DNA of 63,425 nt, filler included. It is 13 parts of 13 records of this genome, joined end to end, with 100 filler letters (N's around TTAATTAATTAA, not from the genome) between each part and the next. Parts side by side here need not be neighbours in the genome. Positions count along the whole stretch, not along the records: positions 13,680 to 17,994 come from SRR15195285_2455; 12 more parts are not named here. One strand, given 5' to 3'. The notes below the pieces were generated by a model. It was not told the origin of the DNA. It made no database searches and worked only from the letters and a program-made list of their open reading frames with translations. The position numbers and the translations under genes were made by a program. Of the stretch, positions 585-18,267 are shown one piece after another (the first letter of the stretch is position 1; each line of letters opens with the position of its first letter).

Positions 585-1688
585 ATGGCGGATCCAACTG
601 AAGACTCGAGTGCGCTCGCCACAGCTCGAGCCACCATTGCTCGGCGGCTCGCAATTGCAGACACAGACGACATGCTGACGCTGCACGAGCAGCAGGGAGG
701 CGGAGGCCTAGACCGCCCACTGCAAGGCTATAACAGTAGATTAGTATCTGCTGGGCGGCGGCTGGTCATCGCCAAGGCCACGCTTCGACGTCTCGGCCAT
801 GACAGCGTCCTGTTTACCCACCTGTCTTCGGATCTTCTCGTATCCGTGGGCTCTGCGGTGACCAGCGTGCCTAGTTTGACCGGCGACTGGCAGGTCCGTG
901 GCGCCTTCCACCACGGCGAGCAGTACCAGTACCGAATGTGGCTTACAGAACACGCTGACGGACGTGTTACTGGCAAGGGCAGGTTTCATGACCATCCACT
1001 GGCACCAACCTTTGTTGTAACGCGCGGGTTGGTAATTCTGAGTGACAATACCGATACCTGGCAGCCTTTCGAAGAAACAGCAAAGCCGTCGACGCGGCAG
1101 CCCGTCCTTCACATGCGACAAGAGAGCAATGAGTTCATCAATTTTTGCTCGCTGGTTTTGAGTCGCGATCGTGCGCAGATGTTGGAGGGCGAATGGATGC
1201 AGCTAGACCTGACCAGCGACGCCGAGGCCTGGGCGGACTATCAGGCTGCTCCTTTTACAGTTCTGAAGCCACATCCTGATCTAGAGAACTTTGGCATGTG
1301 GGGTTGGTGGGGAGCGAGGCGGTCCCACTCAAACCCTCCTGTCCTAAGTGGTCACTGCCCATCGGTAGATCTGTTTGAGCACCTGAGCAAACCCGAGCCA
1401 GCAGTTCGAGTCACTGCTGGAGTCAATGGGAGCACAGCCATGGAACCAGATTCGAAGCTTCCGTGCGCTCCGCCGGAGCCAGGCGTGATCGGGACTCCGC
1501 GCCAGTGGGCTGCCGGTATTCCACTGCGGAGACCACCCACGTGCATATCCGATCCGGTGGTAGAGAAGGGGCAGTGGCCCGATCCGGATCCAGACCCGAC
1601 CGCTGAAGCAGGAGTTCGCCAGCAGCATGATGAGAGGGCAGACCCGCAAGCATGGACACGACGGCGGACGCTGGGCGGATGGCGGTGA
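585..1688 (+). CDS. Hypothetical protein (367 aa), possible F-box-like segment
   Basis: Intact ATG-to-stop ORF with globular composition. LGHDSVLFTHLSSDLLVSVG weakly resembles an F-box-like motif. PDPDPDP tract near the C-terminus. Confidence 0.55.
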   Translation: MADPTEDSSALATARATIARRLAIADTDDMLTLHEQQGGGGLDRPLQGYNSRLVSAGRRLVIAKATLRRLGHDSVLFTHLSSDLLVSVGSAVTSVPSLTGDWQVRGAFHHGEQYQYRMWLTEHADGRVTGKGRFHDHPLAPTFVVTRGLVILSDNTDTWQPFEETAKPSTRQPVLHMRQESNEFINFCSLVLSRDRAQMLEGEWMQLDLTSDAEAWADYQAAPFTVLKPHPDLENFGMWGWWGARRSHSNPPVLSGHCPSVDLFEHLSKPEPAVRVTAGVNGSTAMEPDSKLPCAPPEPGVIGTPRQWAAGIPLRRPPTCISDPVVEKGQWPDPDPDPTAEAGVRQQHDERADPQAWTRRRTLGGWR

Positions 1689-4384: not shown

Positions 4385-4484
4385 NNNNNNNNNNNNNNNN
4401 NNNNNNNNNNNNNNNNNNNNNNNNNNNNTTAATTAATTAANNNNNNNNNNNNNNNNNNNNNNNNNNNNNNNNNNNNNNNNNNNN
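4385..4484. other. Artificial contig spacer (44 N + TTAATTAATTAA + 44 N)
   Basis: Identical 100-nt linkers with stops in all six frames also occur at 7643-7742, 13580-13679, 17995-18094, 21136-21235, 27335-27434, 35637-35736, 39661-39760, 43624-43723, 51541-51640, 55574-55673 and 59367-59466. Confidence 0.99.
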
Positions 4485-5777
4485 CGCCGCCGCCGCCGCC
4501 GCAGCAGCAGCAGCTACTAGTACAGTAGGAAAAGCAGCAGCAGGCGCAGCAACCACAGCCGGAGCCACAGCCAGAGCAGCAGCCGCAGCCGCAGCCACAG
4601 CTGGAGCCGGAGCATTCGCAGCGGGAGCCGGAGCTGCAACAGCTGGAGCCGCAGTCGCCGCAGCAGCCGGAGGTAGAGCTACAGCCAGAACCAGAGCTGC
4701 CTGTGCTGCCAATGCCCCGGCTCAACGACGTCGCACTCAGCCCAACAATATACCCACGTGCAGGAGCGAGGAGCGACTGAGAAAGCTGAACTGCAGCGGC
4801 TTGCACCCGAGAAAGCTGAGCACGGGCGTCTTGCAGCTAAGAAGGCTGAGCAGGAGCGAGTATCGGCTGAGAAAAGCTGCTGTGAAGGCTGAGCAAGTTG
4901 AGCAGGAGCGACTAGCAGCTGAGACAGCTGAGGAGGAGCGTGTTGCAGCTGAGAAAGCTGCTGACGAGGATCGTGTTCGATCAGAGCCTGAACCGCAGCA
5001 ATTGTCATCTTTGATGCCACCACCGGCTTCAATTCCACAGCAATCTTTGCCACCTGCAGCAGCTACTGGCAGCACCGTGGACTCGTTGATGGCACTGCTA
5101 GCATAGCCTATGGACACAACGGCTCAGAAACAAGAAAGAGCCACGTGGCAGGCAGAGCAGGAAAGGATTCTCAAAGAAGATGCATTGCGAGCCGAGGCTG
5201 AGTACCGCAAACGAGAGCAAGACCGACAGGTCAGGGCAAAGGAGCGGCAGAAGGAGGCGGAAGCAGCTGCGTCAAAGGAGCTGTCTGCGCGAGAGGAACG
5301 CAGGCGAGAGGCCATGGCAACGAAGCTGAAAGCCGAGGAGGAGCAAGCAAAGCTCACAGCATTGGCCATGGAATCAGAGCGAAGGGCAGTTGCTGCAGCG
5401 CAGGCAGCCATCACTGAAAACCAAGCAAGAACAGAGCAAGTGGACGAAAGACAGAATAGAAACAGACCCAGGAAGAGCAGCGACATGCTGCTGCATCTGC
5501 AGTCGGCGAAGCTGCGGGCGACTACCTGGTCAATCAGCAGCATCAACATCATGGCGACGAACAGACAGAGCCGCTTCCATCGCCTTTGCCGTTGACCCAT
5601 GAGATACGCGCAGGAAGGCGCATACTCGACGAGACCGTAGGCACAACTGCAAACGGGGATGAGGACGAAAGCAACACAACACGCGAACGTGCGGACGACA
5701 CACGACCAGGTGACGACACACCGCCAGATGAAGAGTGGAAAGTGTTGTGGGCTGCAGTGTTCAACGTTTGCACGTGA
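4485..5777 (+). pseudogene. Disrupted Q/E/P-rich and coiled-coil gene
   Basis: Protein-like QPEP and EQERLAAEKA repeats are broken by in-frame TAGs (4526-4528, 5104-5106) and frame changes near 4760, 4873 and 5465. Confidence 0.6.
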
Positions 5778-7642: not shown

Positions 7643-8070
7643 NNNNNNNNNNNNNNNNNNNNNNNNNNNNNNNNNNNNNNNNNNNNTTAATTAATTAANN
7701 NNNNNNNNNNNNNNNNNNNNNNNNNNNNNNNNNNNNNNNNNNCCACAGACCTGCCGACCCTCACTCCGAGTGAGCACCAGAACCAAACAATCAGTGCTCC
7801 CTACAGGAAGCGAGGGGAGGGTTGTCTGTGCACCCTAAGTGCACACAGAGGGAAAACAGAATGTAACAGGAGAAACGGCATCCCACATCTGTCACTCCGA
7901 TCTGTTTCCGTTCTTATATTAGATCAGATAGATCTAATATTCCTCGAGGAATTGCGCGCGGCCGGCGCTGATTCTGAAATCCCGCGCGGGACCTTATTAT
8001 ACTGTACGCCTTACCCCGGCCGCGCGCTTACTGGCGCGACACATACGTGATACGTAAACATCCGGTGTGC

Positions 8071-13579: not shown

Positions 13580-13697
13580 NNNNNNNNNNNNNNNNNNNNN
13601 NNNNNNNNNNNNNNNNNNNNNNNTTAATTAATTAANNNNNNNNNNNNNNNNNNNNNNNNNNNNNNNNNNNNNNNNNNNNTCTCAGCTTCCGATACAG

Positions 13698-16117
13698 GTG
13701 ATGTCTTCTTCCAGCGTACCGGAGCTGATGGCGGCATTGCACTCACTCTTGGGATCACCGCCCGATCCAGCGAAATGCGACGCCCTCTTGTTTCAGACAA
13801 AGCCGCTGCAACAGAAGTCCTGCTCCGTCGCAGAGTGTGGGCTGTCAAATGGTTCGGTCCTCTTCCTGGTCGGTGACGCCCGTGCAAAAGATTCTGCACT
13901 TGGGATGCCCCCGGCTGCTCCAGCGCCCAGCGTTCACCAATGGAAACAATTCCGCCATGTGAAGCAAAAATCTCGGAACAAGCACTTGCTTGATGTCGAT
14001 ACCGCGTTGCTGTCCTCCCGGTGGCTGCGCATCAGGGCACCGTCTGGCGCAGAAGCATTTGACGCTGAGATCACAGTGCGCTCACTCAAGGGCAGACAAT
14101 GGCGCTTGGGTGTCTTCAAAGAGCCACCAGGTGGTGGTGCTGGAGAACTCATCGGCGAGTACACGGGCGAGGGTTCTGGTCAGCCTGAGCCACACTACGG
14201 CTCTACTTCGCAAGCACGGGAAGCCATCCGCTTGCAACTCTGTGCTGTGGAGCCACGAAGTGATGACAAGTTGGAGGTTTGCTACAAAGTTCTTGCCAGA
14301 GATCCGTCGCACCCAGCCACCCAGCCAGTAGCAGCGAGCACGGGCACCAATAGTCCATCACAGCAAGCACAGGCACAGATTGAATGGCTGCAGCGACAGG
14401 TGCAACAAAAAATGCAGACGGTTGAGTATCTGCGCCGCGAAGGCATTCCAGCGGTCGAGGTGGAGTCGGAGCTTACTGCAGTGCAGGCACAGCTCACCGC
14501 CCTGCAAGCTGCTGCCCAGAGTCAAGGGGCGATTAGCGACTATCCAGCTGCATCCTTTGTTTATTTGGAGGAACTGCGAGACCAGTTGGCTGCCCCGAAC
14601 AAATTTCCGACTGCATGGGCAGATATTCCACCAGCACAAGGAATTTTTGCACCGTTCACCACCGAACTGGCGATCGCGATGTCTGTGAAACGCCGCTTCA
14701 AATCCAAGGCGAAGCCATTCTGGGTGCAGTTCAGGGTCGCGAGCGGAGCCATCGTGGACTGCGTTATGAAGAGCGGTGACGACTTGCGCCAGGTATTCCA
14801 CTGTAGTCAAGATACGTTCTGCTTTCTTTTCTGCTCACCTGCGCTCCTCTCCCTTGTCTCAATGTCTCCGCAGGATCAGGTAGTATTGGGAATGCTCGAT
14901 TGCTTCAATAGAATTTGGGCCCGCGAGGGGGTGACGCACCAGCTCAATGGTGGTGGGCAGACACCTGTTCGGGCTCCACTCTACCGTTGTGTGGCCTGTG
15001 GCACAGATCGTGGCTTTGTAGAGATGCTTGGTGGAGCGAAGCCGGTCGAAGATCTGGTCGAGAAGAAATCAAGAGGCGAGAACGGCTGGAAGTCAGGTGA
15101 CGAGATTATACCCACCGCAGTTGCTGGCTTCATATCGATTTGGGCGCTTGACCTGCGCGATCGTCACAAAGGCAACGTGCGTGCACATCTAGCGCAGTGG
15201 AATGCAATACTATGTAGCATCAAACATTAGGGCTAGCGCTGTTGTGACTGACATAGGTTACTGACTCAGTGCTAACGTGCGATGTGCAGATGGTTGTGCT
15301 GGAGACCGATCGTGGTCAGCAGTTTGCCAACGTGCGTGCACATCTAGCACAGTGGAATCCAATACTGTGTAGCATCAAATACGATGGCTAGCAATGTTGT
15401 GACCGACTAAATTTCTGACTCAGTGCTAACATGTGTTGTGTAGATTGATTTTGGATGGGTGCGACCTTTTGCTAGCTCGCTTGCAGAACGTGCATGTACT
15501 AGCAGTCCCCACCGCATTGGTCCTGGGTTTCGTCTTGTCGTGCCCTCTGTTTGCATATGCACCTTGTCCTGATTCCCACACTCGTTTACAAAAGGGCGCG
15601 CAATCGCATTGTGTCACAGGTGGAGGAGGGACCGCCTGTCGATACAGGGAGATTTCCGATCCCTGCTGGCTTCCGCTACTTGCTGGACGCGACGTCCCAA
15701 AAGGGCGAATTTTTCGATCTCTGCTGGGATGCAAACCGAGTGTTGTATCGCCACCGCGAAGAGCTGAAGGAGCAATGGTGTTCACTGCTGGTGGAACGTG
15801 GATTGAACGACAAGGTGCTCTTCGATGAAGTTCCTGGTAAGTTGTCACGATCGGTGCCTGTTCTTCCATTTATGAGTTGCAGATTGCTGGATCGTTTTGT
15901 GCTGGTGTGATCTCTGACACACGGTTTCTTGGTGCGGGCCGCCTCGCTGTTCATCCGCGCGCGATGTGTGTCTTCCATGCTGTTGGTTATAGTACGAGTG
16001 CAAGAAAGATTGAATATACCTCATGAAGTTTTGGATAAGGAGCTTGCTGGGACAGTAAAAGGGGCATGGGCCACCTGGTGCAAAGATACCATGCACAAGG
16101 CCGGCGGCTACCTATAG
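13698..16117 (+). CDS. Ubiquitin-like domain + PI3K/PI4K-family kinase domain protein (5' truncated, multi-exon)
   Basis: UBL-like LLFQTKPL..SVAECGLSNGSVLFLV. Kinase motifs FKSKAKP, MKSGDDLRQ|DQ, YRCVACG..GFVEM, LRDRHKGN|, |IDFGW|. Includes 42-nt and 15-nt micro-exons; stop TAG at 16115-16117. Confidence 0.85.
15177..15443 (+). repeat. Two near-identical adjacent introns (15177-15289, 15332-15443), introner-like
   Basis: 113 and 112 nt, about 95/113 identical by manual alignment, both GT...CTAAC...AG, flanking the 42-nt exon MVVLETDRGQQFAN. Confidence 0.9.
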
Positions 16118-17900
16118 GTGTGTTCAACAGCCGACTGTGCTTTGTCGAATACTGTTGGCCCCCAACGGCTCTCACGCTCGCCGCCATGGGTTTGTTCAAC
16201 AGCTGACTGTGCTTTGTCGAGCACTGTTGGTCCCCAACGGCTCTCACGTTTGTCGTTGAGCGGGTGTGGTGCAGCTGCTGTGGACCCCCACATTCCAGCT
16301 GCAACTTGCTCGCACGGCAAGAGACGCGAGTATTCGGTCGGTGAGACCGCTACCAGACCATGAGTCATAGCTTTGACCGCAAATACCTTGTCAAGAGTCA
16401 ACAGCACCACAGGGCCTCTGCCTCTGTGCTGACGATGTGAGAAATACACTGCACACGCGAGTATGTGATCGTCATTCACAGCCCCCCGTTGCCGCGTGAT
16501 ATACTCTTCTTGCTGGTCTGGCCTGCATGACAACATAGCAGAGAACCCAGCACAGTCATGCGGAGACACATCGAATCAAGGATATTTATTAGCATGGTGG
16601 GTTGGTGAGCGATGGCTTACCGTTGGCCGATCATCCACGGTACTCTAGCTGCAAACGCATCGTGAATGAAGCTGACCGCGCGCCTCGCGCGGCGGGCCAA
16701 ATTTTCATCGACGTTCTTCTTCAGGCCGTCAAGCTCTTGGAGCACCACCATCGGGAGGACAAGATTGAGTCCCACCGGAGGATGCCTATTATCGCCATTG
16801 GAGCTGCAAGCCAAGGTGCCGCTACATCTCCTACCCACCAAGCGTGTGAGCGCAGTAAGTTCACGCTCATCCAACAAGACACAGGTATCGAGCACTGCCA
16901 GATCGGGCTCCGGCTCCGGCTGTTTCTCTCTGTCGGCGTCGGGCTGCGACTCCCGCTCAACTTCCGGCTCGGCACAAGCCGAGGCTTTCGTATCCTGTTG
17001 CGAGCAGTCTGTACGCACAATTGCGGTCAGCTTGGTCGAGCCGATCTGAACAACATCTCCGGTAGCCAGGGCAACCGGTTGGCTCCACTTGCGGCTGGCG
17101 CTCAGGCGCCGACCGTTGAGAAGCGTGCCTCCTTTACTGCCAGCATCCGTCAGCCACAGTGAGCCGTCCGCACTCACGCCTAGCTGGGCATGCGTTGAGC
17201 TCACTTCACGGTCTTTCAGAACGATGAAGTGGGCCGTGGACATGGCAGAGTTGGGCTGTGCCTTACGCCCGATCGCGACGAAGCCAGCGCCATTCACTAG
17301 TGCTGCACTCGGCACGCGGAGCTGGGTGCCCGGATCTAGCGACGCGACGTCAGTCTGCACGACTTGAAGGCACGGGCCGACTCCAGCGGCGTCCCACCCA
17401 CCAGCCGCGGGATGCTTGAAGTCCGACCAACTACAGATGGCTGGCTTATTGGTCGCTGCGCCGTGGACCACCGCAGCGGTATGCGTGTGCTTCTTCTGCC
17501 CACTGGATGTCTTGGCACCGACCTTAAATGAGACTTTTGAGCCGAAAAGCCCGGCGCCTTTCTTTGAGTCCAGCTCAGCCGCTTGAAAGTCAGACCAGGC
17601 CTTCGCGCTCGACTCTGCCTGCCACGTCAGCTCCTGCTTCTGCTGCCATGTGTTGCCCGCCTTCTGCTGCCAAGCGTTGTTCTTCTTCTGCTCGCGCCGC
17701 TGCTCTCCCGCCGCCGGTACAAACCCAGCCTGGCTCACAGCTGCCGCGGGCACCTCCCTCGACCCGAGCCGGATGCTCGCGATCGAGTCCGCCAAATCTT
17801 CCAGCTCGAGCTCCGGGTCCTCTGCCTCTGCCTCTGCCGCTGCCGCTGCCTCCGCCGCCGCTTCCACCGCTGCTGCGCTCCCATCACGGGCCCTCATCAT
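16108..17900 (-). CDS. FHA + PIN (Swt1-like) ribonuclease domain protein (2 exons)
   Basis: FHA: IGR...VSSTHAQL...LTDAGSKGGTLLNG...GDVVQIG. PIN: VLDTCVLL, LPMVVLQELDGLK, NDDHILACA, LLTLDK. Intron 16523-16620. Confidence 0.88.
16121..16248. repeat. 72-bp tandem duplication in the FHA-PIN C-terminus
   Basis: TGTTCAACAGcCGACTGTGCTTTGTCGA...CCCCAACGGCTCTCACG starts at 16121 and 16193; encodes RESRWGPTVxDKAQSAVE twice. Confidence 0.9.
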
Positions 17901-18267
17901 GGTATGATATATCGCGCAAGCCCTGCCTGCCTGCCTGCGCACCGCACCGCTCTCAACACGGGACTCACAGAATGGTAGTATTTTCCAATACAGANNNNNN
18001 NNNNNNNNNNNNNNNNNNNNNNNNNNNNNNNNNNNNNNTTAATTAATTAANNNNNNNNNNNNNNNNNNNNNNNNNNNNNNNNNNNNNNNNNNNNGACCCG
18101 GGAATCGCCTTGTGGTGGCCCGAGCTCGAGCGAGCGCGCGCGCGTCTTCCGCGTCCACCGCCGCGAGTACATACGCAGTACCATGTACGTATTGAGGGAA
18201 GGCAGCTAGTCGCCTTCGGTGAGGGCTCTGGACATCCACCGTCACTGCCAACCTTGGGTGCACCCAT

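Follow-up and report, generated by a model that had tools for sequence, protein, structure and literature searches.

How can two neighbouring introns of one gene come to be nearly alike when the exons around them are not copies of each other? The question is raised by an MIT/ubiquitin-like/PI3_PI4-kinase gene in a 63,425-nucleotide stretch of DNA (the window). The catalytic core of this gene is interrupted by introns of 113 and 112 nt, here named A and B, which are separated by a single 42-nt exon. A first-pass annotation of the sequence had described the pair and proposed introner-like intron gain. The most probable answer is that A is a full-length, same-orientation copy of B, i.e. a non-segmental same-gene intron duplication (local intron transposition); no sign was found that it belongs to a dispersed introner family. 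The window consists of 13 contigs of 3–8 kb joined by artificial N44-TTAATTAATTAA-N44 linkers (for example at 4385–4484, 7643–7742 and 13580–13679, with nine more elsewhere), so genes on either side of a linker have no physical linkage. Both introns lie on the plus strand of one contig, 13680–17994, which holds the 3′ two thirds of the gene.

The alignment of A with B contains 95 matches, 17 mismatches and one gap column; BLASTN gives 84.1% identity over 113 columns (E 4e-30). The repeat overruns the introns by 4 nt upstream (CAAC) and 2 nt downstream (AT) and then ends; the paired stretches, 15173–15291 and 15328–15445, are 84.9% identical over 119 positions and lie 155 nt apart in direct orientation. 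Both introns are in phase 0, and their exon flanks read GGCAAC|ATGGTT at A and GCCAAC|ATTGAT at B. In each the splice signals are complete, with GTGCGT as donor, YAG as acceptor and CTAAC 14 nt upstream of the latter. Judged by the homology between A and B, the copied unit spans GT to AG, that is, the whole intron. GTGCG donors are common in the kinase gene and its relatives (intron 3; several introns of the orthologous loci L001, L002 and L004), so this share of the likeness is splice consensus only. The exons on either side encode distinct kinase motifs and are colinear with homologues. The lengths and identity of the twin introns, their shared phase and CAAC|AT context and the unduplicated exons had all been pointed out in the first-pass annotation, and alignment, BLASTN and the flank sequences bear these points out; every motif listed there was found in place.

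The relatives of the gene are represented by open reading frame (ORF) fragments in a public protein collection (handles in P) and by four fetched DNA loci (L001–L004). Gene callers translate metagenome contigs through introns, and the read-through of an ORF shows what follows each exon. The A site is covered by eight relatives and contains an intron in one of them, P0010, where DRHKGN is followed by VRVHCCQW.., a read-through similar to the VRAHLAQW.. of A. In the other seven (L001/P0009, P0011 (= P0015), P0012, P0014, L002, L004/P0018 and P0004), DRHxGN passes straight into MV(V/L)..; among them is L001, the nearest orthologue available as DNA (its protein is 97% identical), which reads through the A site. 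In a low-depth, L002-like contig of the metagenome run X3 (record 11), position 15176 is likewise followed directly by 15290, and the part further upstream is similar to the L002-specific intron. The B site is reached by seven relatives, and five of these (L001, P0011, P0012, P0014 and L002) have an intron there. The L001 B-site intron is 79% identical to B. The L002 B-site intron retains the 3′ block CTGACTCAGT.CTA, and positions 15415–15471 align with L002 2717–2778 at 75.8% identity (E 2e-6). Since the B-site intron is widespread and conserved and the A site is empty in the nearest relatives, B is old and A new: the B-site intron predates the split from the two sequenced sister lineages, L001 and L002, and A is most probably a lineage-specific copy of it. 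The intron-copying event proposed earlier, for which a presence/absence score in orthologues had been suggested as a check, is thereby upheld (A missing in seven of eight relatives, a B-site intron in five of seven, exons not duplicated).

Pairwise distances bear on the timing of the event. A differs from B at 17 sites and from the L001 B-site intron at 16, while B and the L001 B-site intron differ at 23. The orthologous B introns are thus the most distant pair, which argues against an old A that was lost in L001. Branches derived by hand are about 5 (A), 12 (B) and 11 (L001 B-site intron) changes long, the difference between 5 and 12 not being significant; they are compatible with copying fairly soon after the window lineage and L001 had separated. 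The divergence between window and L001 introns is 14% for intron 1, 21% for B and 29% for intron 3, as compared with 15% between A and B. The event had been called recent; this does not hold in an absolute sense, as the divergence of the twins amounts to about two thirds of the intron divergence to the nearest sequenced relative, and the event is recent in a relative sense only.

The kinase stretch is present in 13 DNA and 6 RNA runs labelled as seawater or marine metagenome. A single 3226-nt contig of run X1 (record 1) spans 14600–16000, with three substitutions relative to the window and 2 nt deleted from the contig; overlapping contigs cover the stretch in run X3, and of these, records 9 and 12 together contain all of B and all but 4 nt of A. 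As the independent X1 contig and the X3 pieces carry both introns, the twin arrangement is not an assembly error. If A were left unspliced, translation would stop 17 codons into it. The protein would then be truncated, yet exons 2–5 differ from those of L001 by 43 synonymous and only 8 non-synonymous codons; both introns are therefore presumably spliced, and the reading frame across them is intact and under purifying selection.

A third copy was sought in several collections. Within the window, none was found by BLASTN, where the next matches are 10–23 nt long with E ≥ 0.76, or by self-BLAST, in agreement with the first-pass annotation. The loci L001–L004 contain no non-colinear match to A or B. 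In the metagenomes X1 and X3, where the window organism has about 7-fold contig depth, 3 and 9 contigs, respectively, matched the 1.4-kb stretch at the 80% likeness level, and none of them was confined to an intron. A search with 5-residue words of the intron read-through peptide (VRAHLAQWN..) in an index of 5.8 billion proteins of 78–2000 aa yielded P0009, an orthologue, as the sole candidate; such a search sees phase-0 copies only. A HMMER scan of 1.84 billion representatives gave five hits with E ≤ 0.001 and is a weak test, P0009 itself not having been returned. These five hits were rejected as intron copies: they are unrelated repeat proteins with a chance match to LAQWNPI..SIKY. Intron pattern scans gave no matches in prokaryote genome contigs and viral contigs, collections that are unlikely to hold this eukaryote. 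The idea of an ‘introner-like’ mobile family is not borne out, as no third copy was found in the window, the four loci, the X1 and X3 contigs at 80% likeness or the two protein databases; of the two options left open earlier, a mobile family or a local hop, the local hop is favoured.

Two diverged low-depth contigs of X3, corresponding to 15303–15487 and 15318–15355, match part of exon 3 and B and are unlike the window upstream. They may come from relatives with other intron positions in exon 3, contain a partial third copy or be chimeras.

Several alternatives have to be weighed against local copying. A and B may belong to a dispersed introner family (a non-autonomous DNA transposon or introner-like element), A having arisen by a transposition that landed beside B. 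This is unlikely, although A does carry an 8-nt terminal inverted repeat, both introns bring all their splice signals and inverted repeats are frequent in published introner families (72 of 177; PMC9860276). The repeat of A beats 99% of 2000 shuffles. In B and in the L001 B-site intron it is degenerate, only 6 nt in length (p = 0.13 and 0.11), and the palindromic TGCA found in the splice signals here contributes to it. The TAGCAC/GTGCTA pair described for B is present (TAGCAC at 15345; GTGCTA at 15269 and 15423). No direct repeats were seen by eye outside the 8-nt repeat of A, which is flanked by GTGCG and G, and the lack of a target-site duplication makes a cut-and-paste transposon hop less likely. 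The motif AACGTGCG does occur at the donor junction of A and again 100 nt downstream, as had been noted, with a third occurrence at the donor of B. It overlaps the donor consensus at the junction and the branch-site-like CTAAC at 15274–15281; the L001 counterpart of the pair reads CCAACGTAC / CCAACGTGC. Folding of the RNA does not exceed that of shuffled sequences for A (z = −0.78; equalled or surpassed by 47 of 200 shuffles) or B (z = −0.50; 59 of 200), and none of 27 predicted pairs shows compensatory changes; a description of the introns as structured is not supported. A 38-nt partial match in X3 would fit a further copy of such a family, and the related locus L004 contains at least five inverted-repeat-bearing introns of one family in the kinase gene, including one at a distance of 5 nt from the A site. 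The core of the L004 family is, however, absent from the window (no matches at ≤3 mismatches), and the searches of the window, four loci, two metagenomes and two protein databases have returned no third copy of A or B.

The remaining explanations fare worse. Both intron positions could be old, with A lost repeatedly and the two introns homogenised by gene conversion in the window lineage. Intron sites in this gene are unstable among relatives, so losses are plausible, and P0010 shows that an A-site intron is not limited to a single strain. Such a history is nevertheless improbable: it requires loss in seven of eight relatives, including the closest, two unrelated introns 42 nt apart would have had to be similar already for conversion to act on them, and A is as like the L001 B-site intron as its neighbour, which is unlike the outcome of recent conversion. 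Named in the first-pass annotation as a possible refutation, it does not withstand the orthologue and distance data. The spacing of 155 nt and direct orientation of the copies, and the fact that half of the fungal same-gene intron duplications are segmental (PMC3609843), could suggest that intron and exon were duplicated together as a 155-bp segment (tandem duplication) and that the exon copies then diverged. This is very improbable, because DRHKGN, MVVLETDRGQQFAN and IDFGW each represent a different part of the kinase core, universally conserved and colinear with homologues, L001 has the same exons without A, and the homology extends no more than 4 nt and 2 nt past the introns. Tandem genomic duplication of the type that creates an intron from exon sequence with a duplicated AGGT was rejected: A matches intron B, and its junctions are AAC|GT and AG|AT. 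Finally, a collapsed or duplicated repeat might be expected of a draft-quality assembly in 13 short linked contigs, and this possible refuter had been named as well. Its probability is next to negligible, given that the X1 contig has the same arrangement, a third run shows it in overlapping pieces and the two copies differ at 17 sites.

Some observations weigh against local copying from B. The terminal inverted repeat of A is longer than expected by chance (p = 0.0075), and the close relative L004, with its true introner family, shows a tendency of the group towards mobile introns. A differs from its own neighbour at 17 sites, no fewer than from the L001 B-site intron (16 sites), so the sequence alone is no proof that the template was the B of the window lineage after the split. 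The only match of a 176-nt contig of X3 is to 15318–15355 (14 nt of exon followed by 24 nt from the start of B), and the contig differs from the window on both sides of it; it could be a partial third copy. The searches that found no family covered 63 kb, contigs from metagenomes and protein indexes, from which diverged or unassembled copies can escape. No spliced joints were found in five contigs from the RNA runs X14 and X15, all of which are colinear with the genome; RNA cover of the gene is partial, and this result carries no weight on splicing or expression. Four of the five include intron sequence: one spans the whole of A and one enters A by 72 nt, and others contain intron 3, intron 4 and 8 nt of intron 1. 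These contigs look like DNA or pre-mRNA.

If A is a local copy of B, it would have been inserted 155 nt upstream of B, at a site that shares the AAC|AT junction with the donor site. This could have happened by two routes. The excised B may have been reverse-spliced into the nearby AAC|AT site of the transcript, followed by reverse transcription and recombination. Alternatively, a DNA break at the A site may have been repaired by means of the 4+2-nt microhomology, with B copied as filler. Reverse splicing explains the exact intron borders; templated repair explains the shared CAAC and AT flanks and perhaps also the GGC AAC before A. The two routes are about equally likely. The CAAC|AT common to both sites differs from the generic AG|G splice-site context. 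The codons before A are GGC AAC in the window, GGG AAT in L001 and L004 and GGA AAC in L002; GGC AAC matches the GCC AAC before B, and about a quarter of codons differ synonymously in any case. The match is a hint, not evidence, of co-transfer of the exon flank in a DNA-level copy. No direct trace of an RNA intermediate was seen in the sequences examined.

The relatives provide some further observations. Hardly any two relatives have the same intron positions in the kinase gene (P0014, P0018/L004, L002 and P0004): the sites include those after SRG, WKSG and IIPTA, one located 5 nt before the A site and one within DTG|RFPIP. Such variability suggests that introns turn over very fast in the group.

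P0012 and P0002, from a sister lineage, contain a 90-nt in-frame insert after GENGWKSG, which translates as ALAATMRPFFAAHLCSLSHC... The insert corresponds to the +2-frame translation of intron 1 of the clade: compared with L002 2066–2134, 19 of 23 residues are identical (E 3e-9 in a small database). It is located about 224 nt downstream of the intron-1 site (compared region L002 2066–2160), the usual intron-1 site is empty in these ORFs, and the donor and target sites share TCAG|G. The insert is apparently a second same-gene intron copy, perhaps accompanied by loss of the donor; the contigs may be DNA or RNA. An apparently empty donor site is what a cDNA-mediated route by reverse splicing predicts, and the apparent absence of the donor intron would fit an RNA intermediate.

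The kinase gene of L004 has seven introns, at least five of which share a core (..CCAAGACAGGCTCGGGAC..) and terminal inverted repeats of the GAAACGCC/GGCGTTTC type; the 16-mer AAGACAGGCTCGGGAC is present in four exact copies. One copy of the family is inserted 5 nt upstream of the A site, another is antisense, and a related core is found in intron 1 of L003 (see the table). L004 thus carries a true inverted-repeat introner family, in a lineage that is probably picozoan. The core has no matches in viral contigs; three matches in bacterial genomes (L005–L007) were taken as chance matches of an 18-mer. No paper linking Picozoa and introners was found in the literature searched, and Picozoa is not mentioned in one supplement of PMC9860276. 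The taxonomic attribution relies on the ORF P0016, the source name of which is COSAG06; L004 belongs to the COSAG06 lineage and has about 80–90% amino acid identity in the shared exons. A preprint (10.1101/2025.05.06.652364) includes COSAG06 in its picozoan co-assembled single-cell genomes. Through this kinship, the window organism is probably picozoan or close to Picozoa.

A broader suggestion can be made only tentatively and is more likely to be wrong than right: in this group of marine protists, probably Picozoa, ordinary introns may time and again be copied or shifted to another place in the gene where 5–6 nt of the exon junction agree with the donor site. The kinase gene would then record two independent events (B to A at CAAC|AT in the window lineage, and intron 1 to a place about 224 nt downstream at TCAG|G in a sister lineage), and a sister lineage also has an introner family. 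If this were true, the group would offer a natural setting where both of the routes proposed for intron gain operate and can be dated.

Removal of five GT..AG introns gives a 1815-nt reading frame with a single terminal stop, and the product reads ..GDDLRQ|DQVV..DRHKGN|MVVLETDRGQQFAN|IDFGW|VEEGPP.. in order. It is colinear with the homologues P0003 and P0005, which are without these interruptions, and with P0004 and P0018, which have other interruptions; GDDLRQ|DQVV is likewise uninterrupted in P0003 and P0005, and exon 3 is joined directly to the DRHxGN codons in L001, L002 and L004. The PI3/PI4-kinase motifs GDDLRQ, DRHxxN and DFG are all present in the spliced product. The single-exon match to PF00454 (PI3_PI4-kinase) has an E of 4e-4, under the curated cut-off; PF00454 is precomputed for the homologues P0002–P0005, and the MIT domain PF04212 for full-length relatives. 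The ubiquitin-like match in the upstream exon (Pfam PF00240, E 2e-4) is weak and also under the curated cut-off. Exon 2 differs from that of L001 by 28 synonymous and 3 non-synonymous codons.

Features of the kinase gene and of related introns; positions refer to the window unless a locus is named
Feature	Position	Strand	Basis or remark
Upstream exon, partial (starts at contig edge), ends in GDDLRQ	13680..14792	+	translation; orthologous ORFs P0006–P0008 end at the same junction
Intron 1, 81 nt, phase 0, GTATTC..GCAG, unrelated to A/B	14793..14873	+	86% identical to L001 intron at the same site
Exon 2, 101 aa, ends in catalytic-loop motif DRHKGN	14874..15176	+	PF00454 match; 97% aa identity to L001
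AACGTGCG, donor junction of A	15174..15181	+	recurs at 15274–15281 and at B donor junction 15329–15336
Intron A, 113 nt, phase 0, GTGCGT..CTAAC..TGCAG, putative lineage-specific copy	15177..15289	+	alignment to B; orthologue presence/absence
TGCACATC, 5′ arm of A terminal inverted repeat	15182..15189	+	motif search; also at 15337 in B
GATGTGCA, 3′ arm of A terminal inverted repeat	15281..15288	+	motif search
Exon 3, 42 nt, MVVLETDRGQQFAN, between catalytic loop and DFG motif	15290..15331	+	41/42 nt identical to L001
Intron B, 112 nt, phase 0, GTGCGT..CTAAC..TGTAG, older intron and presumed template	15332..15443	+	identity to L001 same-site intron
Exon 4, 15 nt, IDFGW (DFG motif)	15444..15458	+	gene model; L001, L002, L004 loci
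Intron 3, 161 nt, GTGCGA..CACAG, unrelated to A/B	15459..15619	+	71% identical to L001 intron 3
Exon 5	15620..15836	+	colinear with P0003, P0004, P0005, P0018
Intron 4, 156 nt, phase 1, GTAAGT..TATAG	15837..15992	+	gene model
Last exon, ends in TAG stop	15993..16117	+	gene model
L004 family copies	L004 351–483, 857–997, 1073–1207, 1451–1570, 1601–1730; weaker 590–795		shared core
L004 antisense family copy	L004 157–299	reverse orientation	96.6% over 29 nt
L003 intron 1, related core	L003 1624–1765		core similarity

In the window lineage, intron 1 is in frame and free of stops, and its retention would add 27 residues within GDDLRQ|DQVV; the intron 1 of relatives, unlike the window copy, contains stops or frameshifts. 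Repeats of another kind are also present. A 72-nt tandem duplication with 87–90% identity at 16114–16255 overlaps the last four coding bases of the kinase gene, including the TAG stop, and extends into the presumed 3′ untranslated region. In another contig, an overlapping direct repeat occupies 4760–4963 (4760–4882 versus 4850–4963, offset by about 90 nt, 74% identity over 124 nt).

The origin of spliceosomal introns is still argued about. According to Table 1 of a 2012 review (PMC3443670), only 14 ‘intron transposition’ events were unambiguous, and none had been demonstrated in living cells. Here, uncultured marine plankton has supplied all three elements of such an event: the donor intron, its new copy and orthologues whose target site is empty. 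The case sets a local copy apart from an introner burst, which is seen in a sister lineage in the same gene, and the shared CAAC|AT junction is a concrete and testable clue to the mechanism. For annotation, it shows that a 42-nt exon flanked by twin introns can be accommodated in the catalytic core of a kinase that looks essential. The event is a rare and clean trace of intron origin, but it belongs to a known kind.

Introners, known from Micromonas, Aureococcus, fungi and many marine protists (PMC9860276, PMC3609843), resemble A in that the whole intron is copied with its own splice signals, in their varying presence between close relatives and perhaps in the short terminal inverted repeat. 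In contrast to introners, A and B were not found in high copy number in unrelated genes, and A has neither a target-site duplication nor an extra-stable fold. With intron gain of the repair type, A shares a site with short identity to the source (CAAC, AT), and the filler could come from 155 nt away; the classic short direct repeats flanking the new intron are not seen at A, however, and the filler would be an entire functional intron. A look-alike same-gene pair that has been explained by local re-insertion of an excised intron likewise comes from a lineage of rapid intron turnover. Compared with re-inserted pairs of this kind, A and B are older (15% diverged) and share the 6-nt junction CAAC|AT, and the DNA route is equally open for them. 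The A/B case also fits the four same-gene intron pairs of Oikopleura, which have been attributed to reverse splicing (PMC3879977, PMC4122922).

The nearest counterparts are the same-gene intron duplications of fungi (PMC3609843): 82 near-identical cases in 24 fungi, about half of them non-segmental, along with three cases from C. elegans. Such duplicated introns have the length and free energy of ordinary introns, while introner-like elements differ in both, and the fungal cases were read as possible ‘intron transposition within the same transcript’. As in the non-segmental fungal cases, the A/B pair is confined to one gene and its flanking exons are unduplicated. The length and predicted folding energy of A and B are ordinary too, unlike those of introner-like elements, and the finding that they fold no better than shuffled sequences fits this published class. 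The present pair differs from the fungal ones in being 84% identical rather than near-identical and in its host, a marine heterotrophic protist that is probably picozoan; and here, in addition, both the donor intron and the intron-free orthologous site have been identified.

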